From NCBI GenBank assembly GCA_949283025.1, contig CASDRB010000008.1, positions 85 to 64,084 on the forward strand: 64,000 nucleotides of DNA, written 5' to 3'. The stretch's first letter is position 1, and each line of letters opens with the position of its first letter. Of the stretch, positions 12,630 through 54,471 are shown piece by piece. Below the pieces are notes generated by a model that worked only from the letters and a program-made list of their open reading frames with translations, ran no database searches and was not told the origin of the DNA. The position numbers and the translations under genes were made by a program. Source of the stretch: an uncultured bacterium. GTDB lineage: Bacteria; Bacillota_I; Bacilli_A; RFN20; CAG-826.

Positions 12630-14873
12630 TTATCTATTTTTATTACTTTTTTTAATGATGTTTAACACAGTTTGATAAGAAAAACCGGCCATAGTGATGT
12701 TTCTAATTGGAGCATTTTTAAGCGTTGTCTCTAACATCTTATAATTTGGGTTTTTTCTTAATAATTCAATTTGCAAATAAAGATTTATGCAAAATTTAAT
12801 TATTTCTATAATAAATATTTTTTTATTCATATCATAAATTCTCGTATCTAAATCGTATCTTTGCTCTTTGAATTTTATTTTTTGGTCAGCATAAAAATCA
12901 TACATCAAAATTGGCTTATCAATTTTTTCGCCATTAATATGTATAGTTTCACGCAATGGAGTATTATCAACACTATTTCCAACAAAAATTTGATAATCAC
13001 CATCAATCAAAACATCACGATTTAATCGTTTATAAAAATACTTTAAATTACAATAATAAACAAAAATAGAAACATTTTTAGATTCGCCTACTTTTAAATT
13101 TATTTTTTCATAAGCTTTCAATTCCAAAAACGGGAATACGCTCTTTATATAAACTTGAACCACTTCTTTTCCAGGATAATTTCCAACATTTTTAACATTT
13201 AAATTAATGATAAGACCTTCATCGTTTTTAGATACAACTAAATTACTAAATGTAAATTTGGTATATGAAAGGCCATAACCAAAGCAAAATAATGGTTGTT
13301 TTTTATTAAACAAATAATCGCGATAACCAATTAAAAATCTTTCGCGATAATAAGTAATCATGTCATCGTTTTTAGGAATATATTTATCTGCCAATATATC
13401 ATTTGCATGCACCGGAAAAGTTTGAGCTAATTTACCACTTGGCGAAATAATACCAAATAAAATATTTTTTAAGGCTTCTGCTACAGCTTCACCGCCTAAC
13501 CCCGCATATAAAATAGCGTTGCATTTATCAACAAAAGGCATTTCAATCGGATTGCCGCTATTAATTATTAAAATTAAGTTTGACGAAAGTTGATGTAACA
13601 CATCAATCAATTCTATTTCTTGCAAAGGTAATTTATTATTTTGTAAGTCTACACCTTCAGTTTCCACATCAGGTAATTGTATAAAAAGAATGGCAATGTC
13701 ATCGGGTTTAATATTTTCCTTAATTTGCTTTATTAACTTATCATGGCGTTTAGAATTGTTTAAATCATAACCATCATAATTACAAAATGGGATATTAGCT
13801 TGTTTTAAAAAATATAAAAAATCAAATTTAAAATATGGTTTAACATAACTTGATCCGCATCCTTGAATTTTAACTTTGTTTTGACCGATTACTACTACTT
13901 TTTGATTAGTTAAAGGCAAGATACCATCATTTTTTAAAAGTACAATTGATTCTGAAGCGATTTTTAAAGCCGTTTGATAATTATGATGGTAAATGTCTTT
14001 TTTTGATAATGAAATTTTTGAAGGGGTTAAATCCAAATTTAAATGTTGTCTCAAGCATGAATTTATATCTACATCATTGATTAATCCTTTTAGATATTGA
14101 TGATAAATATAACGATTAAGACCCATAACATGAGGCATCAGCAAATTAACCCCACACTTAATGGTTTTAACAATATCATGAAATGCCCCCCAATCAGAGA
14201 TAATCATTCCATCATATTTTAACCTATTTTTTAAAATTGTGTTGATTAGATAATGATTTTCGCCAATATGTTCGCCATTAACTTTGTTATATGCAAACAT
14301 GATAAATCGAGGTGAGGATTCTTTAATTACTATCTCAAAAGGTTTAATATATAGGTTAATTAAAGTCTCTTCATCAATAACCTCATCAACAATCATTCTA
14401 TTTAATTCTAAATTATTTAAAACATAGTGTTTGACACACGCACCAACACCCAAGGATTGTACACCATTTACATAGGCGCTTCCCAATCTACCACTAAGAA
14501 TTGGATCTTCGCTAAAATATTCAAAATTTCTTCCCCCAAATGGATGACGCTTTAAATTTATACCTGGCCCCAATACCACATTTACATTATTAATAATTGC
14601 TTCAGATGCAATTCCTTTCCCTAATTCATAAATTAGTGCATCATTAAAACTACAAGCGCTTAGGCAGGCGCAAGGAAAACACGTCGCCTTTTTGCTATGC
14701 CCATACATCTTAGAAATTCTTAATCCATGCGGTCCGTCACTGAATCTTAACTTTTTGATTCCTAATTTATCATTATGTAAACCAGACCAAAAATTTTTTC
14801 CATTGATATATTTAATTCTTTTTTTTATATCTATTTGCATTAGCAAATAATCTTTTGCTTTTTTATCGTTCAT
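12630..14873 (-). CDS. Glycoside hydrolase family 3 (beta-glucosidase-like), apparently cytoplasmic
   Basis: Contains FSDGPHGLR and the GMIISDWGA nucleophile region. No signal peptide. The start overlaps the GT2 stop by 1 nt (TAATG). Confidence 0.85.
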   Translation of the reverse strand: MNDKKAKDYLLMQIDIKKRIKYINGKNFWSGLHNDKLGIKKLRFSDGPHGLRISKMYGHSKKATCFPCACLSACSFNDALIYELGKGIASEAIINNVNVVLGPGINLKRHPFGGRNFEYFSEDPILSGRLGSAYVNGVQSLGVGACVKHYVLNNLELNRMIVDEVIDEETLINLYIKPFEIVIKESSPRFIMFAYNKVNGEHIGENHYLINTILKNRLKYDGMIISDWGAFHDIVKTIKCGVNLLMPHVMGLNRYIYHQYLKGLINDVDINSCLRQHLNLDLTPSKISLSKKDIYHHNYQTALKIASESIVLLKNDGILPLTNQKVVVIGQNKVKIQGCGSSYVKPYFKFDFLYFLKQANIPFCNYDGYDLNNSKRHDKLIKQIKENIKPDDIAILFIQLPDVETEGVDLQNNKLPLQEIELIDVLHQLSSNLILIINSGNPIEMPFVDKCNAILYAGLGGEAVAEALKNILFGIISPSGKLAQTFPVHANDILADKYIPKNDDMITYYRERFLIGYRDYLFNKKQPLFCFGYGLSYTKFTFSNLVVSKNDEGLIINLNVKNVGNYPGKEVVQVYIKSVFPFLELKAYEKINLKVGESKNVSIFVYYCNLKYFYKRLNRDVLIDGDYQIFVGNSVDNTPLRETIHINGEKIDKPILMYDFYADQKIKFKEQRYDLDTRIYDMNKKIFIIEIIKFCINLYLQIELLRKNPNYKMLETTLKNAPIRNITMAGFSYQTVLNIIKKSNKNR

Positions 14874-35667: not shown

Positions 35668-37087
35668 TTAAATTTTATTAGTTTTATTCTTTAACATCGC
35701 GTTTAAAATAATGCCCAAAATCATTGCTACTGCAATAGATGTTATCGTAATAATAGGGTTTTCAGGATTACCAAATTTAAATGCCAGGCCACCAATACCA
35801 CTGACTAATATGACAGAAGCAATAAAAATATTCTTTTGATTATTGAAGTCGATTTTTTCTTTAATCAGCATCTTGACACCACTAGAAGCAATAAATCCAT
35901 ATAGTATCAAACTTATACCACCAGTTACTGCAGCAGGAATTGTTTGTAGCAAAGCAGTAAAAGGTGTAAAAAACCAATTACAATACTAAAAATTGCCGCT
36001 AATAAAACAACTTTTGTTGAAGCAATTTTAGTCATGCCAATAACAGCAACATTTTCTCCATATGTGGTGTTGGCAGCGCCACATAAAACACCGCTGACAG
36101 CCGTGGCAATTCCATCTCCAGATAAAGTTTTTGCCATTCCTGGTTCATCATTTAATAAATCGCGATCAATTATATTTCCTAAGTTTTCATGATCTCCAAT
36201 ATGTTCGCACATAGTAACCAAAGAAACTGGAACAAATAATAATATGACGGTGCCTATCGTTGCCCAATCAAAATTAGCAATTTCTTCAAATCTTAAAAAA
36301 ACAAAACTCTCGCCATCATTTGGAATAAACAATTTATAATTTAAAAAGCTTGCAAAACTAATATTTTCTTTTGAAAAGATATTGATAAATGGACTAAAAT
36401 CAACTATTTTGAAATATTCATTGCCGCATCCATAAAACCCAATTAAAGTCAAAATAACCGCAAAAACATATCCGCTGCTCATCCCGATGACAAAAGGAAT
36501 TAATTTGGCCATTTTTTTACCATAATGACTAACGAGTGCGGTTGTAAAAAGTGCAATCAACCACAAGATAATGCCGCCCAATTATATAGAGGGCTGTTTG
36601 AAATATTTGCAGAAGTAATATTGCTTATAGCGCTTCCAGCCAAAGATAATCCGATAACCATGATGATTGGACCAATTACAATTGGTGGTAAGACTTTATT
36701 TAACCATTTAGTTCCGACAGTTTTTACTATCAATGCAAAGATACAATATATTAATCCAACTAATATCATGCCAATAATCAACGCTAAATAATTCATGCCA
36801 CTGGCCTTTCCAATTAAGCCAATTGATAAAGCGCTACTCATCGGCGATAGATATGCAAAAGATGATGAAAGAAAAACTGGTGATTTTCCTTTAGTAATTA
36901 ATATGTAAATAAAAGTTCCGATACCAGCACTTATAATAGTTGCTGCGATTGGCAAACCAGTCAAAAGTGGGACCGTGATACATGCTACAAGCATAGCTAA
37001 CACATGTTGAATCGAAAAAAGAAACCACTCGTGAATTTTTTTAGGGCTCTCTTCAACGTCTAGAATCAAATTCTTGCTTTTTTCCAT
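35668..37087 (-). pseudogene. pyrP: Uracil/xanthine permease (NCS2 family) disrupted by at least two frameshifts
   Basis: Three consecutive ORFs (36557..37117, 35925..36581, 35668..35952) together recapitulate one permease (QHVLAMLVACITVP.., ..TTYGENVAVIGMT.., ..LQTIPAAVTGGISLILYGFIASSG). The second break maps to an A6 run at 35968..35973. A seventh A would restore ..IGFFTPFTALLQTIP... Confidence 0.8.
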
Positions 37088-37107
37088 AACCTTTACTTTC
37101 CAAAAAA

Positions 37108-37129
37108 AATTCGGCACTGAAGCCGAATT
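37108..37129 (-). terminator. Strong rho-independent terminator directly upstream of the permease start
   Basis: The minus strand reads AATTCGGC-TTCAGT-GCCGAATT followed by T8. It ends about 20 nt before ATG 37087. Confidence 0.7.
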
Positions 37130-39336: not shown

Positions 39337-39945
39337 ATATCGCTATATGCTTTGCTGTTTTCTTTAGACGAAGATAATGCCGGAATGTGGAACTATTATA
39401 CGAAAAATAGAAATCAAGATGGATATTCGCTTACTTTCGATTTAAAAGAGCTAATGTTCAAAATAACTGGTGTCCAGTCGAAACCTATATACTATGACGC
39501 TAATGCTTTCCCTATAATTTATACTGAAGAAGAACAAAATGACATTATCCTTAAAATTCTTAATGAGTACTATTCGCTATGGGATAAATTTGCTGAATAT
39601 AGAAATGAAATTGTGGATGATTGTTTCGATCTACTTATCTCGATAAGGTTTTGTTTTAAGCATCATTCTTATGATTATGAAAAGGAGTTTAGAGTTGTCC
39701 TCAAAGTTGAAAACCATGAATATTATGAAGCCATTAAAAAGAAAGTAATAAAGTTTGAAGAATCAAATGGTTTTTTTATTCCTTGTGTTTATTTAAATTG
39801 CATAAACGAAAATTCACTTTGTGAAATAACGGCATCACCAATGTTAAAAGACGAAATTGATATTCAGAGCCTAAATTCACTTTTATACCAGAATGGGTTA
39901 GAACACGTTCATACTAGGGCCTCAAACTGTCCAAAGCGATATTAA
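39337..39945 (+). pseudogene. 5'-truncated DUF2971-like gene
   Basis: LFSLDEDNAGMWNYYTKNRNQDGYSLTFD resembles the central CFS...MW..Y..G motif of DUF2971 proteins. The N-terminal ~80-100 aa region is absent. The reading frame opens right after stop 39334..39336, 14 nt from the repeat array. Confidence 0.45.
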
Positions 39946-39970: not shown

Positions 39971-40393
39971 TCAATTCCTAGAAAACACCTTATTGGCATT
40001 CAATTTTGCTTTTTCTACATTTCTTTGAACCACTTCTATTCGATCGTGATCGCGTTGAAGTTTTAAACATACTTTTTGAAACTCTGGAGAGTATTCGAAA
40101 TTATGGATATACATAAAATCAATGTATGCTTGATGACACCAGTAATTCCTCTTTTCTCTCATTTGGTTAAGAAAATTATAATCATCTTTAGAAATAAAAG
40201 GTGTTCCAGCAGAATAATCTAGTTCTTTTAGTTCTTTTATAACGAAACCAAGATTCCTTTTATCTAAGCTATCATAATTTTCGCTAATATCGCCTTTATG
40301 CATCAGCGAATAAATCCATTTTAAATCTCCTTCTATAAGTTGAAAACATCCTATTGTTTCACTGTGCAAAATCTTAAATTCTTGAAAATTCAT
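39971..40393 (-). CDS. Small HEPN-like protein (tentative)
   Basis: 140 aa and all-helical in appearance. Has an Rx4H motif in REKRNYWCHQAY. It is the last gene of the island operon, starting 3 nt after the upstream stop. Confidence 0.45.
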   Translation of the reverse strand: MNFQEFKILHSETIGCFQLIEGDLKWIYSLMHKGDISENYDSLDKRNLGFVIKELKELDYSAGTPFISKDDYNFLNQMREKRNYWCHQAYIDFMYIHNFEYSPEFQKVCLKLQRDHDRIEVVQRNVEKAKLNANKVFSRN

Positions 40394-40396
40394 AGT

Positions 40397-40576
40397 TTAT
40401 TCGACTTCTTTTTCAAAGACTACGACACAAGCACCGAGCCAATCAGAAAAATCAAATTTAACTAATTTCCAACCTTCATCAGCTTTTTCGTCAAGAGTGT
40501 CTTGCAACTTTTTTGTTAGTGACTTTTTGCTAAGAGCATAACCCAATGTCACCGTCTCATATTTATATTTTTTCAT
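40397..40576 (-). CDS. DUF4177-like small protein (59 aa, below the ORF-track cutoff)
   Basis: Manual translation: MKKYKYETVTLGYALSKKSLTKKLQDTLDEKADEGWKLVKFDFSDWLGACVVVFEKEVE. The YKYETV...EGWKLV...VVFEK pattern is typical of DUF4177. ATGA overlap with the upstream gene. Confidence 0.6.
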   Translation of the reverse strand: MKKYKYETVTLGYALSKKSLTKKLQDTLDEKADEGWKLVKFDFSDWLGACVVVFEKEVE

Positions 40577-41265
40577 TCTATCATCCCCAGCTCTTTCATC
40601 TTCTCTTCCCTAAGTTCAGATAATGTTTTCTTGTCATCTGCTTTTCTCATAAAGGCATAGCTTTGAATGGCTTTCCACCCTGTAACTTTGCAGCCGAAGA
40701 CATTCGCAGACATCGTTTCCCCTTTGTATTCGACGTGTTTTCCATCAAGTATTGTTGCTACTTCATCTGGGTGAGAAATAACACAAATCTTATCACCCGG
40801 TTTAACTAATCCTTGTTCGATCATCCAATCCAATTTAGGAAGCTTAGTTTGAGTTCTTTTAGTTCTTATTTCTTCTGCTTCTTCTTCGTCTCTAATTTGT
40901 TTTGCAGATGGTTCTACCAAAACTAGATGATCTTCTAATCCGTTTATCTGAGCAATGGTTTCAAGAATAGAATAAGCATCAGCAGGTGTCATATTATAAA
41001 ATTCACGTTTCCTAGTCTTACCATCAAACTCCTCAATACTTCTAAGATTAGGGTTAAGCTTATCGATCATTTGATGCAGCTTCATGTCAGTGAGTCTTTT
41101 TGGAACTTCATAATAGGCATAAAGCCTAAAAGCGAAAGGAATGCATTCACTCCTATTAAGTTCTTTTAACCTTTTGTTAACATCGTCCGCATATCCTATC
41201 TTCACATAGTCTGGGAACGATGGATTGGTAAGTATGTAGATTACGCCTTGTGATTTAGTTTCCAT
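40573..41265 (-). CDS. T5orf172 (GIY-YIG superfamily) domain protein with DUF4357-like C-terminus
   Basis: GVIYILTNPSFPDYVKIGYADDVNKRLKELN is a T5orf172/MUG113-type signature. The C-terminal ~80 aa domain assignment is tentative. Confidence 0.65.
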   Translation of the reverse strand: METKSQGVIYILTNPSFPDYVKIGYADDVNKRLKELNRSECIPFAFRLYAYYEVPKRLTDMKLHQMIDKLNPNLRSIEEFDGKTRKREFYNMTPADAYSILETIAQINGLEDHLVLVEPSAKQIRDEEEAEEIRTKRTQTKLPKLDWMIEQGLVKPGDKICVISHPDEVATILDGKHVEYKGETMSANVFGCKVTGWKAIQSYAFMRKADDKKTLSELREEKMKELGMIE

Positions 41266-41278
41266 AGATTAGTTGTCC

Positions 41279-44200
41279 TTACTTTAATTTCCAAGATAAA
41301 AAATCTTGTGTAAATTTGTCCTTATTTTCATAAAGAATTTTGTTAACTTCTTTTTTAGAAACGCTCAACGCTTTAGCTATCTTTTTAGCACTCATCCCTT
41401 TAGCATTAGATTTTAGCAAAGAAACTATTTTTTCTTCTAGACTATTATCATCGCTAGCAGTTTCACGTTGTGGCGTTTCTTCAACATCTAAATCAGCATC
41501 AGCATCTGTGTCTAACTCATTGCTATAAGATGTGATTTCGTCTTGAACGGCTTTAGCGTTTATTTCGTTCACATAGTCTTTGACTTCTTGCTCGATTTTA
41601 TTAAAACCAAACCAACCAAAACTATTGCGATATTGATTGTTAATATCAGGATTATTAGTATCTAAATTTTCGCCGATAGATTCATTCACAAAGAACTCGT
41701 GGATATAGTTGTTTAAAGTTTTTTCCTCAAAAATATGATATTTATTCAAAGCTTCAAAATCTTCTTTTTTAATACCAACTGCCTCTAAAAAGACATCAGG
41801 ATCAGCATTTTTAAAGATTTCTCTAAATGTTGTTTCACGATAGACGCTAATAAATAAAAATTCTATAAGTCTTGATAAAATATGCCTCAAAGCGTTGTTA
41901 CAATCAGCAACCGACGTGTCATTAGGTCCAGCAGGAATCTTAGGTGCTAAGGTTGTTTTAACTCCAAGTTTAAATGAATCACAATACCATCTCTTATATA
42001 GCATTCCTCTATATTCTTGTGGAATATGGTTAATGTCATTTAAATATTGATTAACAAAATTATAGATTTTTGGTCTTGTTTCTTTTGTAAATACAATATT
42101 GTTGCCAAACTGCGCTTTTACTTCATTATTAGCGAATTTGATGCCATCTTCTTTTCCACATTGAAGTCTTCTAATTGGAACATTAACGCCCTGTTCATAT
42201 CCTTTTTTAAAGCCGTTTGTGTACCAAACAACCTCATTATGACTATAAGTCTTAGGACAGTTCTCAATTACATAGTTTTCTATCTTCTCTTCAAATGTTT
42301 TTTGAACAACTTCATCATCTAAATCAAAATAGAGATTAGAATCAGCTAATCCCAAGTTATAACCCTTGTCTCTACCTTCTTTGGCTACTTTAGTTTCATA
42401 TCCTTTTTCAGGATCGGATTCTACTGGTTTATATCCACCTTGCTTCTTATCTTTAAATTTAGAGTGAGCAAATATCTTTTTGAATATATCATTTATTTCC
42501 GGATCATTGAGCATTGCAGCAAGTGTCTCTTCGTCCGCTACGTGAGTTGTATTCGCTAGATTTGTAATCTTTCTGCTTAAAGGGAGCTTTGATTGATCGC
42601 CTAATGTCGCTAATTCATAGAACACCTCATAAGCAATCGGGCTAGACATATCACCATTCATGAAAATTGGTAGATATTTAACGATTAATTTTGCTGTTTG
42701 AAGTTTTGTATAAGCTTCGTTCTTGCCACTTTCCTCAGCATATCTTAAAAGTAAAGCTGCTGCCCTATCGATATTGAAATCATAAACATATCCCTCTTTT
42801 TTTAAAATAACACCATTTTTAACAAGAGGGGTTTGAATTCGAAACACGGATTGAAAATATTGTTCCGGCGAAGATAAATCTTTTAAAACAAAGACACTAA
42901 ACCAATCTTTAACAGTAACGCCAATAGTTAATTTGTTTACTGTAAGGGCGATACTTCCTAGTTTATTAGTGTTATTGGCCCTAGTAATGCCTTCCATTAA
43001 ATGGTCGAATGCATCAACACCACTTCCTACACTTCTATCAGAAAGATTGATGATTTCATATTTAGAAAAATAGTCGTCGCTTTGAAGAAGCTTAGTCATG
43101 GCTATACAAGAATTAACTGATGGCATGAGCCATAATGTGTGCTTGTTATTGTTGAGCATTTTGTGGTTTGAATATGGGAAATCCATGCCGAATGTGGATC
43201 TACCTTTTATGATTTCAAACCACGTTTTGATTTCGTCCTCATAGACAAACACTAATGGTTCGTCAGGATTGGAATCCTGTCTAGTTTCAAAGAATTTATT
43301 TAAAGAAAAATATGATTTGCCCAGAAATTTATCAGTTGAACTAGTTTGATCACTTAAACTTCCAAACAAAGTAGACATGTTGTAGCCGAATATCTTCATG
43401 TCTGGGAATTGAGCGTAAAGAGGATCTATACGCTCAAAACTAGGTGGTTCTTTATCTGAGTCAGGATATTTATTTTTTTGCTCATCAAAGTAAGAATATG
43501 TAAACGTTGTATCTTTAGTAAACTCGCCCCTAGCTAATACTTTAAAAGGGGTCCCAGATAAGCAAATTATCTTATCGGTTTTGATGCCAAATCTATCGAT
43601 AACATCCTTTGTTTTGCTTAATTCTTTACTGTAAGCTGAGTCCAAGTCTTCTAACTTTTCTTGAGTTCTTTCATTCCAAGCGCCGAAATGATATTCATCT
43701 AAGATAACTAAATCAAAATGTTCTCCTTTTAGCTTTGCGATTTTCTCTTTTACATCGCCATCTTTTTCTTTTCCTAAGAAATTCTGCAACGACAAAAACA
43801 GAACGTATGGCTCATTGAGATTTTCCAAATGGAAAAATACATTTCTTAAATTTTTATCAGTGTAATATTTGTAATCTTTTTGAATATGTAAAAGATCATC
43901 TTTCCATGAAGCCTCAACTGCAGGTATGAATGTAAGAATTAAAATCCTATTTATGTTTGCTTCTTCGCAGTATTTGTAAGTGGTATAGGATTTACCAAAA
44001 CGCATTTTGCAATTAAGCAAAAAACGTCCGCCTTTAGGCTTTTTATCAAAATAAGTTTTAAGAGCATCGATACAGGCTTGTTGTTCTTTTCTAGGTGTAT
44101 AGATTTCCTTTTTCGAGCCTTTATTTCTAACTTTTTCAAATATCTCAATTAATTCATCTTGAGGAACATTAGTGAACCACTCTTGCTCCTTTTCGGTAAT

Positions 44201-44581
44201 ACCAGCATTGATTTTTAATATCTCATCATGAACATGATAGTCTTTAAACTTCTCATTCCTTGCATCTAAGCAAACGCCCCAATATATGACTTCTCTTTCA
44301 TTTCCATATTTAGCAAATTGATCATCAGTTAGAGCTAATTCATGGACTTGTTCACCTATTCTTTTCTTTAGAGCATGATTAAATGTCTCGCCGCCATGAC
44401 AGGTAGCCATACCAACCTTAATTCCGTGAAAAGGAAATTTAGGTAAGATATACATATACAAAACGATTAAATTTTCGTCAGTATCATTTGTTTTGTTTAA
44501 CTCAAAAGTTTGAGTCTTGTCGTCATAAGTAACAACGTCAGATTGATTGATATCAGGAGAAAATATAACTCTGCAAGACAT
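41279..44581 (-). CDS. Multidomain protein: N-terminal T5orf172 nuclease-like domain, SF2 (ResIII/SNF2-like) helicase, C-terminal winged helix
   Basis: N-terminus GIKVGMATC..KKRIGEQ..HVHDEILK..EQEWF. Helicase motifs RFGKSYT (I), VILDEYHFG (II), LSGTPF (III) and QSVFRIQT (VI-like). Acidic linker, then KIVSLLKSNAKGMSAKKIAKALSVSKKEVNKILYENKDKF..SWKL. Confidence 0.8.
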   Translation of the reverse strand: MSCRVIFSPDINQSDVVTYDDKTQTFELNKTNDTDENLIVLYMYILPKFPFHGIKVGMATCHGGETFNHALKKRIGEQVHELALTDDQFAKYGNEREVIYWGVCLDARNEKFKDYHVHDEILKINAGITEKEQEWFTNVPQDELIEIFEKVRNKGSKKEIYTPRKEQQACIDALKTYFDKKPKGGRFLLNCKMRFGKSYTTYKYCEEANINRILILTFIPAVEASWKDDLLHIQKDYKYYTDKNLRNVFFHLENLNEPYVLFLSLQNFLGKEKDGDVKEKIAKLKGEHFDLVILDEYHFGAWNERTQEKLEDLDSAYSKELSKTKDVIDRFGIKTDKIICLSGTPFKVLARGEFTKDTTFTYSYFDEQKNKYPDSDKEPPSFERIDPLYAQFPDMKIFGYNMSTLFGSLSDQTSSTDKFLGKSYFSLNKFFETRQDSNPDEPLVFVYEDEIKTWFEIIKGRSTFGMDFPYSNHKMLNNNKHTLWLMPSVNSCIAMTKLLQSDDYFSKYEIINLSDRSVGSGVDAFDHLMEGITRANNTNKLGSIALTVNKLTIGVTVKDWFSVFVLKDLSSPEQYFQSVFRIQTPLVKNGVILKKEGYVYDFNIDRAAALLLRYAEESGKNEAYTKLQTAKLIVKYLPIFMNGDMSSPIAYEVFYELATLGDQSKLPLSRKITNLANTTHVADEETLAAMLNDPEINDIFKKIFAHSKFKDKKQGGYKPVESDPEKGYETKVAKEGRDKGYNLGLADSNLYFDLDDEVVQKTFEEKIENYVIENCPKTYSHNEVVWYTNGFKKGYEQGVNVPIRRLQCGKEDGIKFANNEVKAQFGNNIVFTKETRPKIYNFVNQYLNDINHIPQEYRGMLYKRWYCDSFKLGVKTTLAPKIPAGPNDTSVADCNNALRHILSRLIEFLFISVYRETTFREIFKNADPDVFLEAVGIKKEDFEALNKYHIFEEKTLNNYIHEFFVNESIGENLDTNNPDINNQYRNSFGWFGFNKIEQEVKDYVNEINAKAVQDEITSYSNELDTDADADLDVEETPQRETASDDNSLEEKIVSLLKSNAKGMSAKKIAKALSVSKKEVNKILYENKDKFTQDFLSWKLK

Positions 44582-44582
44582 A

Positions 44583-46298
44583 CTAAATCATCTCCTGAAT
44601 ATTCATTTGAATGAATTTGATTTCTTCACTATTTAAACCATATCGAACAAATAATTGTTCATCAATACTGCTAACACTCTTTGACCAATCAATATCTTTC
44701 TTAGACTTAAAATCTAAAAGAGGGACAAATCTATATACTTTTTGAGTGGTGTGTTGTGTTTGTTTTTGAATACCTACTAAAGCTCTAAAAAATTTGGTCT
44801 TTATATATTTTATTACATTTTCTGCGCTTTGTGCATCATTAAAAGGGCCTATCTCGAGGAATGTCTCAGTGCATAGTTGTCCTGGCGTGCTTAGCACTGG
44901 CGTGCTAGGGACCTCTCCAATATTTCCGCAGCCATAAGCCTCAGCAATAAATACTTTATATTTATCAAGGCATGGACTTTTCTTTGGAATTGGATAGTTC
45001 TTAGGCAAATATTTCCAAGTCCTTTTCATTTTATCACCTAAGCCAAAAATTTCATAGCCGCCATCAATTTTTTCAGTTAAAAATTCTGGGAGCCCGAACT
45101 TCGATGCAGACACCATAGTCTCAGCACGAAAACCATATGGTTTGGAAGCTGAGACTATGGTGTCGAACGTATTTTCATTTCGCGCTAAAACTTTGTCTAA
45201 AATTGAAACCAAAATCTCGTCGCGAATAAAAATATCTACGCCATCTTTTTTTAAATACCTTGTACTCTTTCTAACACCGTTTTGGGTATACGATGTAATC
45301 TTACATGGTCCGGTGTGATCTTTATCCCACAAAAAGAAACAAACGCCGCCTTTTATATCATTATTAGGGAAACATTCTTTTGGATTTAAAAAATCATGTA
45401 GACTTGAAAAATGTTTATCTTCAATCATTTTTTGCCTAAAATCATCTAACCCCTTCCCACCTATCATCCACCTAGATGGAACAATCATGCATAAATATTT
45501 TGGATTTAAAGAAATAGCATTTTCAACAAACAATTGATAGATAGGCCTTGCGCTAGCTTGTGCCCCTCCATCACTTAATTGGTATGGCGGATTTCCGATA
45601 ATTACATCAAATTTCATAGACCTGTCTCCTTTAAAAAATAAATCTTGCAAATGCCTCTCTAAAGCCAATTTCCCATAGTGGATAAATTCGTAGGCATAAT
45701 GTTCCCTTTGATCAGATGAATTGTACTTAGAATTACTCTTTACACGACAGTATATACATTTACCACCTTTATCAAATGTATGCTCGATTCGTGGAGTTTT
45801 TATATTTCCTTCTTCATCATCAAACCATGTTCCATTGCCAATCGCATATCCATTTACATAATGTCCATCGGGCGCTTTAATTCCATCGCATTTTCTATTC
45901 GCTTGAGAGCAATAATAAAGGGTTCTTCTAGCTACGTTGGCTGTAAATTTAGTTTGCCCAATAGCAAATATCATATTTTGAAGAATGTGTTTTTTTCTTA
46001 TTTCTTCATTTGGAATAATATCTTTTAATCCTTTATCTAATCTCAAGGCAATTTCTCTTTCAAAAATTCCGTTTTTAGTTGCGGGGTTTAACCACTTATA
46101 GTTTGGGTTATGCCATACTTCCTCAGGTAAGGAATCTAGAATCATGTCGCATGTTTTTCGAGGAGTGAAAACCTCATCATTGCCGACATTGGTAATAGTT
46201 TCCAAAATATCGAAGTGTTCTAAATAGTCATAGGCACTTTCGACAGCGCTGGTATGATCTTTTTCTGCCTTTATAGCTACATTCTTATTTTCTTCCAT
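44583..46298 (-). CDS. Eco57I-type (gamma class) N6-adenine DNA methyltransferase
   Basis: Motif X DEVFTPRKTCDMIL, motif I-like WLNPATKNGIF and catalytic motif IV VIIGNPPYQ. It starts 1 nt after the upstream stop. Confidence 0.85.
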   Translation of the reverse strand: MEENKNVAIKAEKDHTSAVESAYDYLEHFDILETITNVGNDEVFTPRKTCDMILDSLPEEVWHNPNYKWLNPATKNGIFEREIALRLDKGLKDIIPNEEIRKKHILQNMIFAIGQTKFTANVARRTLYYCSQANRKCDGIKAPDGHYVNGYAIGNGTWFDDEEGNIKTPRIEHTFDKGGKCIYCRVKSNSKYNSSDQREHYAYEFIHYGKLALERHLQDLFFKGDRSMKFDVIIGNPPYQLSDGGAQASARPIYQLFVENAISLNPKYLCMIVPSRWMIGGKGLDDFRQKMIEDKHFSSLHDFLNPKECFPNNDIKGGVCFFLWDKDHTGPCKITSYTQNGVRKSTRYLKKDGVDIFIRDEILVSILDKVLARNENTFDTIVSASKPYGFRAETMVSASKFGLPEFLTEKIDGGYEIFGLGDKMKRTWKYLPKNYPIPKKSPCLDKYKVFIAEAYGCGNIGEVPSTPVLSTPGQLCTETFLEIGPFNDAQSAENVIKYIKTKFFRALVGIQKQTQHTTQKVYRFVPLLDFKSKKDIDWSKSVSSIDEQLFVRYGLNSEEIKFIQMNIQEMI

Positions 46299-46299
46299 A

Positions 46300-47289
46300 T
46301 TAGATCACTCCCCTTAACAAACTTATAAACCTTACTTTTTTATTCTTTTCCCAATCCATGATGTAGCAATATTTGCCATTATGTTCATAGATATTGTCCT
46401 TAGCACATCCCGGGCATTTCTTCTCTGGCTCACCTAATACCTCTTCTTCGCCAAAGATATTGGTCATCACGTATCGAGTAGATTTGACATTCTTACAACT
46501 GAATGGAACCACGTATTTAAGACCATCCATTTGGAAAACGTTATAAACGATGATTTCCGCAATTTCCTTTAATAATTCGTTAGATGGTTCCTCATTGAAT
46601 TTATCCTTGTAGGAATCAATAAAAGTAAATAGCAAATTCTCTCTTGCAATTAAAAGATTGTCGCCTTGAAATTCATATCCATAGATTGCTTTATAGGCAT
46701 TCTTTGTCCATTCAATCCATTCTTCTTTTGCATCGCAGTTTTCACTTACGACTCTTAACTTTCTATCCAAAAGACCGATGCGTTCAATTAAAGGAATAAA
46801 TTCGCCAGTAACAGTGTCATATCTACTAGTTAAATAAGGCGCTTCACCACAGGTTATTTCTAGTCTTATATCCTTAACGTAGTCTTGCCATGTTTTATCC
46901 GTAAACTCAATTTTATTAGTATTGGCTTGCCATCCTTTTTCTTCTTCAAAATTAAAAACATTCTCTCTTCCGAACCACGCATTATCGATTAAATTATTTT
47001 GTTTGTTGCAAACCCATGATGGAGTAAAGACCTCAGCCTTATCTTTGGATCTGATTCTTTGTTCTTCTTTTGATTTATCAATACGCGCTCTAATAAGTGC
47101 TCTTTTCTTATTTTTAAGAAACTCTAATTTAATTTCAGTAGTTTCCTTATATCCTCTTTTAGCATAATTATCAGTAGCAAAAATAATGTTCTTGTTGGTG
47201 TTTTTATCTTTCAACAAGAGCTCTATTATTTCATCATCGATATTATAGATAAGGTCATTTGTTTGAGTAATTTCCACTATCTCCACCAC
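46300..47289 (-). CDS. Methyltransferase-like protein lacking the catalytic (D/N)PP(Y/F) motif, unknown function
   Basis: AEVFTPSWVCNKQNNLID (motif X-like) and LEITCGEAPYL (motif I-like), but no NPPY-type tetrapeptide. C-terminal CPGC..Y.H..KYC cluster. Confidence 0.6.
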   Translation of the reverse strand: MVEIVEITQTNDLIYNIDDEIIELLLKDKNTNKNIIFATDNYAKRGYKETTEIKLEFLKNKKRALIRARIDKSKEEQRIRSKDKAEVFTPSWVCNKQNNLIDNAWFGRENVFNFEEEKGWQANTNKIEFTDKTWQDYVKDIRLEITCGEAPYLTSRYDTVTGEFIPLIERIGLLDRKLRVVSENCDAKEEWIEWTKNAYKAIYGYEFQGDNLLIARENLLFTFIDSYKDKFNEEPSNELLKEIAEIIVYNVFQMDGLKYVVPFSCKNVKSTRYVMTNIFGEEEVLGEPEKKCPGCAKDNIYEHNGKYCYIMDWEKNKKVRFISLLRGVI

Positions 47290-47292
47290 CCA

Positions 47293-47487
47293 TTAATCAT
47301 CTAATTTCATGCCAATCTCATTGAAGAGAGCGACTAGCTTTTTCTTGGTTTCCATGTTTGGTTCGAATTTTCCTCTTTCCCATCTAGAGATAGAAACAAA
47401 ACTAACATTTAATATTTTAGCAAGATCCTCTTGGGTTAAGAATTTTCTCTCTCGATATTCTCTAATCTTTTTAGCGTAATCAAACAT
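47293..47487 (-). CDS. XRE-family helix-turn-helix regulator (controller-protein position)
   Basis: LTQEDLAKILNVSFVSISRWERGKFEPN. 64 aa and the first gene of the operon. GAGGTG RBS. Confidence 0.85.
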   Translation of the reverse strand: MFDYAKKIREYRERKFLTQEDLAKILNVSFVSISRWERGKFEPNMETKKKLVALFNEIGMKLDD

Positions 47488-47581
47488 ATGGTCACCTCAT
47501 TAACACTGAGCACTATTTTAACACAAAACCCTTAAAATTTCGATATTTTAAATAAACTTTTATGAGATTTTTTCTCAAAAA

Positions 47582-47669
47582 ACAAGGGGTGTCGTTTATC
47601 TCGTAGGGGTTTCATTTTTCTAGTAGCCTAACGTTTCTCTAGTAAGGGTATCGTTTATCTAATAGAGCC
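47582..47669 (-). repeat. Right array of five ~20 bp tandem repeats, inverted relative to the left array
   Basis: The plus strand reads ACAAGGGGTGTC / GTTTATCTCGTAGGGGTTTC / ATTTTTCTAGTAGCCTAAC / GTTTCTCTAGTAAGGGTATC / GTTTATCTAATAGAGCC. It lies about 95-180 nt upstream of the XRE start codon. Confidence 0.85.
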
Positions 47670-47805: not shown

Positions 47806-47890
47806 TGGTGCGGTTGACAGGACTTGAACCTGCACGAGTTGCCTCATTAGAATCTGAATCTAACGTGTCTACCAATTACACCACAACCGC
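47806..47890 (-). tRNA. tRNA-Leu (anticodon CAG)
   Basis: Manual fold: acceptor GCGGTTG/CAACCGC, anticodon stem TTAGA/TCTAA, loop TTCAGAT, long variable arm, GGTTCAAGTCC, CCA. Confidence 0.85.
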
Positions 47891-51618: not shown

Positions 51619-54471
51619 CTAAATCTTGGTGGCAGTTTTAATCACAGTATTTATCTCATCATTGCAATGAGCTGCAATAAATGTATCCATTACTGTTAAA
51701 TCCACTTCGCTACCTACATCAACCAAATCTAATGATGCGGAAATTTTTATCGTGATGCCAACGCTGATATTTAGATTAATATCTAATCCTGAGAGCATAG
51801 CCGTTTCACTATTGACGCGAACTTTAACAGTCAGCGATTGCAAATCAGGATTTTGTGCTAATTCAGCAATATTAATATCGATAAAGAAATAAGAGCCTTG
51901 TTCTTTATAATAGAAATCTTTTAATATAGTTTCATATCTAATTTGTCCGTTAGCAGATGTATTTGAAGATTGGATTTGATCCATAACCCAACTTCTTAAG
52001 CCCATTACAAATTCACACAAATAATACATGATATTATCCATAAAATAATCCAATTGACAAACAGAAGTATAATTAACATCGTATTGAGTTGTAAAAATAA
52101 TTCCATTAGAAACGCGATCTGTTCTTCTCAAATATACCAACCCGTCCCGATAATAAATGCTAGCAGTTCTGGATTTTGTAGAGGTATAATCAGGATCACC
52201 ATTTGCAAGCCCAACGATAGGTATATCTGTTAAATCCAATGATAAAGAAACATTTCCTTGATTATTTTTGATTCTTAAATCAATAGGTAAATCTTTATCA
52301 ATAATTCCAAGGATATTTAAATTTGCTTTCCCAACTAAACGATAATCATTAAATTCAGCAGTGTTAATACCTAATGAAAGTAATAATTTTATATCTGAAA
52401 AATCAAAATATGTATTCATAGGATCTAATCTTGTAGATTCTAAGGAAGGATCAAAGTCAGTCAAATTTATGTTAAAATTAATAATAGTGTTATTGAAATT
52501 TATATTACTGAATTCGATACCATACAAATGCGTAGAATCATAATTGATAGTTAAATGCATAATGCAATCTAATCCAATTAAGGCGCCGCTTAAATCTAAA
52601 TCAATAGTAGTAGGTGTTATTTGAATATTGCTAAATGTATTTGTGGCAAACAAAATACCAATGTCACCATTTAATGCCTGATATAATGGCGTCTCGCTAA
52701 TTTTTTGTAATATGTCACCAAATAATTCCATAAAATGATCATCTTTATTGTTAATGATATCTCCAACCATAGTATAAATATCATCAATTGCAGCACCATC
52801 AAGTTTTCCACGAAGTGTTTGGTTATATGCAAAAAGCAAAGTTTTATCTTGGCGATAATCAGCTTTCAAATTATGCGTATAATTAGTTTGATCAACAATT
52901 GTGACTTCACCATATCCATAGGTATCTAAAACATCGAATTGTAACCCTCCATTAATTGACACAGGAGCAGCTTCTTCACTAGAGGATGTAACTTCACCGT
53001 TAAACTCTAATCTAAATTGTTCCTGATTAATTAAGTTAAAAATAGTTGGTACTAATTCCATAGCAGGATCTAAAGCAACATATTCTGATGTGACTGGACT
53101 AACTAAATTGAATGGCTTGACATCAATATCGACATTGACAATATAACCATTATATTCATAATCATCTAAATGAATTCCTAACAATGTTTGATAATCAATT
53201 GAAGCATAAATAGTAATTTGATTAATTTGCAATCCAAACACCGATAAATCAATAGTAATAGAAATTTTATCTTCTAAAACATCTATTGCGACTATCCATG
53301 AATTTAAATTTTCTAAATTTGCAATCAAATTAGACAATTCTGGTCCACTCACAGTTGTGGTTAAATCATCTAAAAGAGTTTTAATCGTGTCATCACTAAT
53401 TTGATTTAACAAATAATCAATCAAATTTGATGTAGTTTGATTTTGAATTGATAATTTGTTTATATCAGCTTGATTGATAAACAAAGTATTATTTTTTAAA
53501 TATAAGCCAAATTGATGATGTCTATTATTTTCATCAATCCCAATATCAAAAGATGCAGCATTATTAGTTAAATCATACGATAGATCACCATTGATGCTGA
53601 TAACATTTTCAAGACCATTTAAAGTTTGTTTATCCAAACTTACGTTTAAGCCGAAGGTGTTATTTTTATTTTGAAATAAATTATAAAAACCATTGATTAA
53701 ATTAAATGCTGGTCTAAATGATTGATATGTAGGAGCGCCTTCTATAGTTTCTGGATTTAACAAAGCATCAGTAGGTACATTTTCGCTACTAATATCACAA
53801 TCCAAAAATACAAATAAATCATCGTAAAAAAACTTATTAGTTCTTAATCCAGTAAACTGATAATTAAAATCGCTCTTGAAGAAAACTGAAATTGTTTCAT
53901 TTAAATCCAATTCAAACATATACCCATCAGGACAAGATGTTGGTTCCATATTGCTCAGTTTTGATGTCACGTCATTCAAATCTAACGTTTTGATTTCTTC
54001 CGGCATCGAAATATTGACACCCATAGAAGGGAGCATATCAATAAAATCAAACAAATCAGCTTGTTCTAATTTAAGATGGCTTTGATTGTAATCAACATAA
54101 ATTGTCTCATCAAAATATCCTAAAGACCCTGTGATAGAAGAAGCGCCATAATTAGCGAATAAATCTCCACTAATTTTTAAATTAGACAAATCGCTGACAT
54201 CGGCTACCCCTTGTATGTCGATACAACCATGTGTCATATCTTGCTGATAAGTAAACTCTAAATTAGCGTCAATATTAAACTTATTCAAACTCATCAATGA
54301 TGTAAATAAGACTTCTGATGGTTTTAAAGGTGTGTCTGGATTATCGGTTGGCAATTGTTCTGTTGATTGTGGCGTATAATTGCGATAGCAAAGATAATAT
54401 GTAATCGCACCACTAACTCCAAACAATGTGGCAAATAACACAGTTTGCTTTAACAAAAACGAATGTTTCAT
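51619..54471 (-). CDS. Large (950 aa) N-terminally membrane-anchored protein, unknown function
   Basis: One N-terminal TM (VLFATLFGVSGAITYYLCY). The rest is N/D/I/L-rich and looks beta-rich. No recognisable motif. Confidence 0.7.
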   Translation of the reverse strand: MKHSFLLKQTVLFATLFGVSGAITYYLCYRNYTPQSTEQLPTDNPDTPLKPSEVLFTSLMSLNKFNIDANLEFTYQQDMTHGCIDIQGVADVSDLSNLKISGDLFANYGASSITGSLGYFDETIYVDYNQSHLKLEQADLFDFIDMLPSMGVNISMPEEIKTLDLNDVTSKLSNMEPTSCPDGYMFELDLNETISVFFKSDFNYQFTGLRTNKFFYDDLFVFLDCDISSENVPTDALLNPETIEGAPTYQSFRPAFNLINGFYNLFQNKNNTFGLNVSLDKQTLNGLENVISINGDLSYDLTNNAASFDIGIDENNRHHQFGLYLKNNTLFINQADINKLSIQNQTTSNLIDYLLNQISDDTIKTLLDDLTTTVSGPELSNLIANLENLNSWIVAIDVLEDKISITIDLSVFGLQINQITIYASIDYQTLLGIHLDDYEYNGYIVNVDIDVKPFNLVSPVTSEYVALDPAMELVPTIFNLINQEQFRLEFNGEVTSSSEEAAPVSINGGLQFDVLDTYGYGEVTIVDQTNYTHNLKADYRQDKTLLFAYNQTLRGKLDGAAIDDIYTMVGDIINNKDDHFMELFGDILQKISETPLYQALNGDIGILFATNTFSNIQITPTTIDLDLSGALIGLDCIMHLTINYDSTHLYGIEFSNINFNNTIINFNINLTDFDPSLESTRLDPMNTYFDFSDIKLLLSLGINTAEFNDYRLVGKANLNILGIIDKDLPIDLRIKNNQGNVSLSLDLTDIPIVGLANGDPDYTSTKSRTASIYYRDGLVYLRRTDRVSNGIIFTTQYDVNYTSVCQLDYFMDNIMYYLCEFVMGLRSWVMDQIQSSNTSANGQIRYETILKDFYYKEQGSYFFIDINIAELAQNPDLQSLTVKVRVNSETAMLSGLDINLNISVGITIKISASLDLVDVGSEVDLTVMDTFIAAHCNDEINTVIKTATKI

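Follow-up and report, generated by a model that had tools for sequence, protein, structure and literature searches.

A probable ATP-dependent restriction-modification system resembling a split Type ISP enzyme in a defence island of an uncultured CAG-826 bacterium

An Eco57I/MmeI-like methyltransferase that works together with a helicase and a nuclease of the GIY-YIG/T5orf172 type was predicted in 2009 to act as a restriction-modification (R-M) system (Morgan et al., 2009; PMC2731913), and the same R-M-with-helicase toolkit has been studied in Bacillus subtilis as DnmA(YeeA)-YeeB-YeeC (PMC9973331). The T5orf172-RAMA architecture has been described as typical of the nucleases of N6-adenine R-M systems (PMC4738411), and phage ICP1 has a T5orf172 protein that functions as a nuclease (PMC8263062). 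In Type ISP enzymes such as LlaGI and LlaBIII, a nuclease of the Mrr/PD-(D/E)xK type is followed in a single polypeptide by a superfamily 2 (SF2) double-stranded DNA (dsDNA) motor, then by an N6-adenine methyltransferase of the gamma class and, C-terminally, by a recognition domain; these enzymes translocate at the expense of ATP and cleave when two of them collide head-on. Here we analyze a locus with related components in a stretch of 64,000 nucleotides (nt) from an uncultured bacterium of the CAG-826 lineage (NCBI GenBank assembly GCA_949283025.1, contig CASDRB010000008.1, positions 85 to 64,084 of the forward strand), hereafter called the window, to whose numbering all positions refer. An initial annotation, made from the sequence alone, had proposed seven adjacent genes, here g1 to g7, as an R-M-like defence operon and as the best candidate for an undescribed system. 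We consider it likely that g1-g4 constitute an ATP-dependent R-M system working in the manner of a Type ISP enzyme whose parts are divided among several subunits, in which the methyltransferase-like protein g2 would be an obligatory partner of the methyltransferase g3 with a regulatory, structural or cofactor-sensing role, and that g5-g7 are exchangeable cargo of a small defence island beside a tRNA-Leu gene.

All seven genes are open reading frames (ORFs) on the minus strand, separated from g1 to g7 by 3, 1, 1, 13, -4 and 3 nt, as the initial annotation had read them, and its assignment of the locus to R-M-like defence, with a methyltransferase and helicase core of Type ISP or Type III logic, is upheld. 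Its individual calls have also stood, directly for the XRE protein, the Eco57I methyltransferase, the SF2 helicase with its winged helix, the second T5orf172 protein and DUF4177, and indirectly for the methyltransferase-like g2, the nuclease domain of g4 and the HEPN-like g7. The order of the seven genes as a whole fared differently when it was checked in 31 related loci, collected by tblastn of plasmids and by a scan of one genome per species: it is not conserved, and g6 and g7 are not associated with the core. These loci belong mostly to uncultured gut Bacilli or Mollicutes-like metagenome-assembled genomes (MAGs), with Clostridia and other gut bins also represented and with plasmid hosts in Rhizobium, Mycobacteroides and Pediococcus; the hosts of the core span Bacillota, Actinomycetota, Alphaproteobacteria and others. 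Upstream sequence, on which the counts of adjacency among g2, g3 and g4 are based, was present for 27 of the 31 loci. Genes for g3 and g4 are adjacent in every one of them, and a g2-type gene, always of one BLAST-linked family, lies immediately 5' of g3 in 26. The conserved unit is g2-g3-g4 with an optional XRE regulator, and g5-g7 are variable island cargo.

The subunits of this unit also occur joined in one chain. A protein of 1417 amino acids (aa) encoded by the Pediococcus plasmid pRS5 (locus L001) corresponds to residues 41-968 of g4 joined directly to residues 17-569 of g3, with the domain order T5orf172, ResIII, Eco57I, and fused g4-g3 proteins of this kind were found on at least 57 plasmids, mostly of Enterococcus and lactic acid bacteria, and are common on plasmids of Lactobacillales. 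The PADLOC model REase_MTase_IIG PDLC03626 (1359 positions) aligns at 176-595 with g4 residues 185-589 and at 998-1359 with g3 residues 216-570; since it spans both proteins, single-chain versions must exist. The fused relatives show the components in the same N-to-C order as the Type ISP enzymes, with which the family has in common a nuclease, a dsDNA motor of the SF2 type, an N6-adenine methyltransferase of the gamma class and a recognition domain at the C-terminus. Three differences stand against these likenesses. The N-terminal nuclease is of the T5orf172/GIY-YIG type rather than Mrr/PD-(D/E)xK; the window encodes three polypeptides (g2, g3 and g4) where Type ISP enzymes are single polypeptides, and even the fused relatives keep a separate small subunit; and this extra methyltransferase-like subunit is obligatory in the window family, fused forms included.

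The nuclease-motor protein g4 (1100 aa; 44581-41279, minus strand) carries an SF2 ATPase/translocase core at residues ~160-600 (42782-44104), recognized by a ResIII match (PF04851, 3.5e-7 in Pfam), by its motifs and by its fold match. The motifs comprise GKS (motif I, K197), DEYH (motif II, 295-298), SGTP (motif III, 342-345) and a motif VI region with Q577, R581 and Q583, all four being invariant in the family. Directly upstream, at residues ~38-140 (44162-44470), the protein has a T5orf172/GIY-YIG-type nuclease domain as judged from homologue matches and conserved residues: in the full-length homologues L001, L002 and L003, at 26-28% identity to g4, T5orf172 is matched at the aligned position directly before ResIII (2.3e-5 to 3.6e-3), several homologues are named 'GIY-YIG nuclease family protein' in RefSeq, and within the family Y42, Y44, R74 and E134 are invariant residues and H118 a nearly invariant one. 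A BLAST comparison of this N-terminus with g5 gave no significant match, and Pfam scans of g4 gave no Mrr match. The AlphaFold2 (AF2) model of g4 has a mean confidence (pLDDT) of 71.5, and a fold search with it ranks the Type ISP enzyme LlaBIII first among PDB structures (E=8.6e-11), ahead of SauUSI, an ATP-dependent endonuclease, of Snf2-type dsDNA translocases and remodellers, and of RadD.

Behind the motor lies a conserved region predicted to be mostly alpha-helical (residues ~604-965; 41687-42772), which in the fused relatives sits between the helicase and the methyltransferase. Judged by the fusion point of these relatives, this region is likely to contact the N-terminus of g3 and to act as a docking or coupler region. 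A disordered acidic linker leads to the last domain of the protein, a z-alpha-like winged helix (residues ~1046-1100; 41282-41446; PF02295, 1.3e-4/4.8e-5). This C-terminal appendage is modular and varies in the family, the winged helix being absent from homologues of ~990-1006 aa. In two aligned g4 homologues, most likely the forms of ~1250-1266 aa (L016, 3175-6930; L029, 10001-13801), a GGACT/AIG2 (gamma-glutamyl cyclotransferase-like) domain takes its place. The motor family as a whole comprises 1404 clusters at 50% identity, with lengths of ~760-870, ~1100 and 1330-1470 aa.

The methyltransferase g3 (571 aa; 46298-44583, minus strand) matches a single Pfam family significantly, Eco57I (PF07669, 2.3e-34), with UPF0020 below the cut-off and no match to PF01555, and it matches the PADLOC model MTase_II PDLC03375 at 5e-67. 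Its motifs follow the order X (DEVFTP), I (NPATKNGIF) and IV (GNPPYQ), which is that of the gamma class, and it contains a Cys-rich insert. Across the family NPPY and the Lys of motif I are invariant and motif II has no acidic residue. The core of the protein (residues 30-330) is conserved, in contrast to a variable C-terminal stretch of ~240 aa (330-570), as expected if this stretch forms the target-recognition region. A predicted dsDNA-translocase-type SF2 motor and a gamma-class methyltransferase followed by a C-terminal recognition region, both features of Type ISP enzymes, are thus found together in g3 and g4.

These properties bear on another interpretation of the core, in which it would resemble Type III or BREX systems, its ATPase acting as a sliding switch or as a block to replication without cleavage and its T5orf172 domain only nicking DNA or being non-catalytic. 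As in Type III systems (Mod/Res, e.g., EcoP15I), the methyltransferase and the helicase-nuclease are separate proteins and the motor belongs to PF04851, the Type III Res family; the weak fold matches of g2 include the BREX methyltransferase PglX; and the fold search is blind to the difference between translocation and a sliding switch, its top matches being mostly translocases. However, Mod proteins are of the beta class (N6_N4_Mtase) with an internal recognition domain, whereas g3 is of the gamma class with a C-terminal one; in Res proteins the helicase comes first and a PD-(D/E)xK nuclease stands at the C-terminus, whereas g4 has an N-terminal nuclease of another type and a C-terminus made of the helical region and the winged helix; and Type III systems lack a third subunit. 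The best fold match to a Type ISP enzyme and the ISP domain order of the fused relatives also argue against this interpretation, which we regard as quite unlikely. In the PADLOC scan the seven genes matched MTase_II, REase_MTase_IIG and PDC-S57, with weak mad1/mad2 or HTH matches besides, and no BREX, DISARM or Type III profile was matched. Membership of BREX, DISARM or MADS was rejected, no signature proteins (PglZ, BrxC, DrmA/B, Mad proteins) having been detected in that scan, and membership of Type III was rejected on the class of the methyltransferase and on the absence of a Type III PADLOC profile. The scan called no named multi-gene system, but the parts are already catalogued there: PADLOC models exist for g2-like and g3-like proteins, for the fused helicase-methyltransferase ("Type IIG") and for PDC-S57, and the locus can no longer be called the best candidate for an undescribed system.

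The third conserved member, g2 (329 aa, GTG start; 47289-46300, minus strand), has no Pfam or NCBIfam match. It matches the PADLOC model MTase_II PDLC03390 from end to end at 7e-110, and its family profile finds the Type I methyltransferase HsdM (3ufb) in the PDB, weakly, at 1.3e-3. Motifs X (EVFTP), I (LEITCGEAPYL) and II (YGYEF) can be recognized, the position of NPPY reads N-V-F-Q, and the C-terminus bears a CxxC...H...C cluster, in keeping with the description of g2 in the initial annotation as a methyltransferase-like protein without a catalytic motif. In the family as a whole, motif X is kept as (E/Q)(V/I)FTP and motif II keeps its acidic residue; motif I has the canonical form LEPxxGxGxF in the short members; and at the NPPY position Asn alone is invariant, many short forms reading N-F-M-W. 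The g2-type genes fall into two length classes, long (308-350 aa, to which g2 belongs) and short (211-231 aa), and make up at least 8000 clusters at 90% identity. A separate g2-type gene also lies directly upstream of the genes for fused enzymes, among others in loci L001 and L045, and one g2-type homologue is named 'type III restriction endonuclease subunit M' in RefSeq. The AF2 model of g2 is confident (pLDDT 88) and a fold search with it returned no significant PDB neighbour, the non-significant top matches being the methyltransferase parts of LlaGI, PglX, LlaBIII and DrdV, two of them Type ISP enzymes.

Because g2 keeps motifs X, I and II without NPPY while g3 keeps NPPY without the acidic residue of motif II, the pair may be read as a composite or allosterically coupled methyltransferase, with the g2 family as a new kind of obligatory R-M subunit. 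We put this forward tentatively, as an unlikely possibility, one form of which could be a switch that senses S-adenosylmethionine (SAM) or the state of methylation and licenses the motor-nuclease.

Upstream of g2, g1 (64 aa; 47487-47293, minus strand) is a small helix-turn-helix (HTH) protein of the XRE type (PF01381, 1.4e-12 in Pfam), co-oriented with the R-M genes that it precedes, as controller (C) proteins are, and with a weak match to the PADLOC model Control_protein (1.5e-3). An XRE gene lies directly 5' of the core in only five other loci (L005, L006, L015, L028 and L032), which makes g1 an optional member of the system; we regard it as a probable C protein. A sigma-70-like promoter-like site, TCGAAA and TAAAAT with a 17-nt spacer and an extended TG, is found 5' of g1 at 47543-47515 (minus strand), and a near-palindrome of 20 bp at 47532-47551 (minus strand) overlaps its -35 element. 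This near-palindrome is a candidate operator at which g1 could possibly act. A search for C-boxes, the palindromes that C proteins have in their own promoters, yielded nothing beyond it, and its conservation among relatives is partial: the upstream regions of L032 and L005 share the core ATATCGAAAT and the -10 element with the window. Between the promoter and the tRNA-Leu gene, at 47587-47665, there are four tandem repeats of ~20 nt, GGGTGTCGTTTATCTCGTAG-like and 65-100% identical, which may represent iterons, the remnant of an att site or sites for a regulator; the similarity between the window and L032, described below, stops at 47582, just short of them.

The remaining genes, g5 (230 aa; 41265-40573), g6 (59 aa; 40576-40397) and g7 (140 aa; 40393-39971), all on the minus strand, are followed by a terminator-like hairpin with a T-run directly 3' of g7 (39972-39951, minus strand), and with one promoter-like and one terminator-like site g1-g7 appear to be a single transcription unit in the window. 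This arrangement and the tight spacing of the genes favour the proposal that all seven form one integrated, undescribed defence system with g5, g6 and g7 as obligatory effectors or sensors, and the presence of a T5orf172 gene after the helicase gene in the nearest relatives, as well as the usual tie between RAMA domains and N6-adenine R-M systems (PMC4738411), could be taken in the same direction. The comparison of loci speaks otherwise. The relative L032 is 95% identical and has the order XRE, 333 aa, 566 aa, 1100 aa and a T5orf172 protein of 220 aa, after which unrelated genes stand in place of g6 and g7; at the nucleotide level it is similar to the window between 47582 and 40930, a stretch that takes in the promoter, g1-g4 and the g5 N-domain and stops within g5. 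We report this shared stretch as a mobile block. A DUF4177 gene was found in none of the 31 core loci and a HEPN-like gene in a single one (L005), at a different position, and relatives of g5-g6-g7 exist without the core. We therefore hold it very unlikely that the seven genes form one system.

The protein g5 has a T5orf172 domain (2e-13) and a C-terminal RAMA match (9e-4) below the Pfam cut-off, and it matches over its full length, at 1e-80, the PADLOC candidate PDC-S57, a single-gene candidate family. T5orf172-RAMA nucleases are a likeness that concerns g5 only, and with its sub-threshold RAMA match it belongs to a family that is itself a candidate and for which the literature search found no experimental function. 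The T5orf172 N-domain of the g5 type follows g4 only in L005, L006, L032 and L033, which form the closest clade, and relatives of g5 also occur without g4 in L034-36, so that g5 is either an accessory partly associated with the core or a module in its own right. A DUF4177 domain is found in g6 (PF13783, 6.3e-6), and the g6-g7 pair recurs only in the close relatives L034-35; a trio of T5orf172 fragment, DUF4177 and g7 is found with no g4 match within the sequence available there. No significant domain match was obtained for g7, which carries an RNxxxH motif (R82, N83 and H87) that is fully or almost fully invariant, the HEPN superfamily being marked by an Rx4-6H motif in an all-alpha protein; 19 of 45 members of its family match HEPN_Swt1 weakly and below threshold (best 0.0096). 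Relatives of g7 occur in phage-like contigs near terminase genes or in integrase-bearing elements. In L037-L040 (e.g., L037, 6001-6420), g7-like HEPN proteins that are 62% identical are encoded three genes upstream of a large terminase gene, near an HNH gene and a fragment of the N-domain of SAM synthetase. Both g6 and g7 are locus-specific cargo, g7 being of phage or mobile-element origin, and the composition of seven genes is an accident of the defence island. The coupling of three small genes to the core, as first proposed, thus fails for DUF4177 and for the HEPN-like gene and largely for g5, of which it stands only in the closest clade.

In other loci the place downstream of g4 is taken by ABC-3C genes, by a gene for an SF1 helicase-DUF2726 protein or by one for a DUF2971 protein, and g5-g7 are read as cargo because they are not conserved with the core and other defence genes hold the same position elsewhere. 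The superfamily 1 (SF1) protein has ~1030 aa with AAA_11/AAA_12 helicase domains and DUF2726 (scanned in L009), and BLAST-linked relatives of it are encoded 3' of the core in three loci that are unrelated to one another, directly after g4 in L009 (12977-16060) and L016 (6952-10056) and one gene further in L029 (14450-17554); it may be a co-travelling defence gene. In L028 a DUF2971 protein is encoded at 13282-14238, directly downstream of the motor gene.

DnmA(YeeA)-YeeB-YeeC clusters draw on the same set of components, one conserved operon encoding an Eco57I-superfamily N6-adenine methyltransferase together with an SF2 helicase and a nuclease of the T5orf172/GIY-YIG type. The general combination has been in print since 2009 (PMC2731913) and was studied in B. 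subtilis (PMC9973331), which also speaks against the initial view of the locus as the best candidate for an undescribed system. The comparison, made by description only for YeeA, YeeB and YeeC, shows clear differences. In YeeABC the nuclease stands alone and carries its T5orf172 domain at the C-terminus, whereas in g4 the nuclease is fused N-terminally to the helicase; DnmA has ~880 aa, is homologous to MmeI and has no PD-ExK, whereas g3, at 571 aa, has no detectable relative among solved structures of the MmeI family, PDB searches with its sequence and with its family profile having returned no chain of MmeI or DrdV at E<=1; and the window has a small methyltransferase-like subunit. In the window the helicase gene is downstream of the methyltransferase gene, with the nuclease fused to the helicase, and a separate T5orf172 gene, g5, follows but is not conserved.

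The B. subtilis system also raises the question of activity. Tested with three phages and with transformation, DnmA-YeeB-YeeC protected against neither (PMC9973331), and the core in the window might likewise be an epigenetic or relic locus in which an orphan methyltransferase stands beside a nuclease-helicase that no longer restricts, as proposed for that system. In L017, L024, L026 and L030 the methyltransferase or motor genes are frameshifted or split, which suggests frequent inactivation or errors of MAG assembly. Nevertheless, all four core ORFs are intact in the window, the catalytic-type residues are invariant across relatives at only 26-28% identity, the family is large, with its 1404 clusters, and the recognition region has diversified beside a conserved core, a pattern typical of phage-driven selection; moreover, DnmA/YeeB homologues of Vibrio crassostreae affect phage sensitivity, as cited in PMC9973331. 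A locus that has lost restriction altogether is, in our judgement, most unlikely.

Several points weigh against the view of g1-g4 as a split, ISP-like enzyme. The family is known from sequence and models, and the lack of a restriction phenotype for DnmA-YeeB-YeeC indicates that such clusters can be inactive (PMC9973331). The TM-scores of g4 against LlaBIII are low (0.26/0.20), the motor alone aligning well, so that the similarity to Type ISP enzymes is at the level of the motor. The N-terminus of g4 in the window has no Pfam T5orf172 match even at E<=1, and because of this the nuclease call rests on homologues and conserved residues. As g5 follows g4 in the closest clade, it may have a functional link to the core, and the seven genes appear to be transcribed together here. 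Searches of the PDB with single sequences and family profiles, covering all core proteins and a fused relative, found no sequence-level similarity to LlaGI or LlaBIII and no useful solved relative apart from the weak HsdM match of g2. The literature search turned up only the YeeABC work and general statements where a characterized member of the family was sought, and it found no biochemical, structural or phenotypic study of the core family.

We nonetheless favour the reading of g1-g4 as a split, ISP-like R-M system, which would work as follows. Together with g2, g3 would read a specific, probably asymmetric site and methylate adenines of the host DNA at N6. Through its helical C-terminal region, g4 would dock on g3, and at unmethylated sites its SF2 motor would translocate dsDNA at the expense of ATP, whereupon the N-terminal T5orf172/GIY-YIG nuclease would nick or cut, probably at a distance from the site. 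The timing of expression would fall to the XRE-type controller g1. Co-transcribed with these genes, g5, with its T5orf172 domain and its RAMA-like domain of the m6A-associated kind, g6 and g7 would be exchangeable passengers and not subunits.

The seven-gene block has a slightly raised G+C content, 0.33-0.35 against ~0.26-0.30 around it, and its near neighbour on the upstream side is a tRNA-Leu(CAG) gene (47806-47890, minus strand), which serves as context only. A Pfam scan of the flanking ORFs showed no integrase, and a comparison of flanks made to define the ends of the island found no flanking gene common to the window and the related loci. Convergent to g7, at 39352-39945 on the plus strand, a DUF2971 gene that is the PADLOC candidate PDC-S31 (Pfam/PADLOC) belongs to the cargo of the island and lies outside the operon. 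Farther away, a xanthine/uracil permease (PF00860) is broken into three consecutive ORFs of 186, 218 and 94 aa (35668-37117, minus strand), likely a pseudogene or the result of frameshifts, and an ORF of 950 aa (51619-54471, minus strand) has no Pfam or PADLOC assignment and a faint match to a phage tail-tip protein (E=0.087).

The core is a widespread, catalogued and uncharacterized variant of helicase-type R-M and not a categorically new principle of defence. Several phyla are represented among its hosts, and it is frequent on the plasmids of lactic acid bacteria and of enterococci; the family would be a natural experiment in which a GIY-YIG type nuclease takes the place of PD-(D/E)xK and ATP-dependent restriction enzymes occur in split or fused form. 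The most interesting feature of the core is its always-present methyltransferase-like small subunit, and if g2 does act as a switch, this would be a control principle undescribed for Type I, ISP or III enzymes. Understanding the core would extend the mechanistic picture of Type I, ISP and III enzymes and lead to a better annotation of the many genes now named "Eco57I domain" or "DEAD/DEAH helicase".

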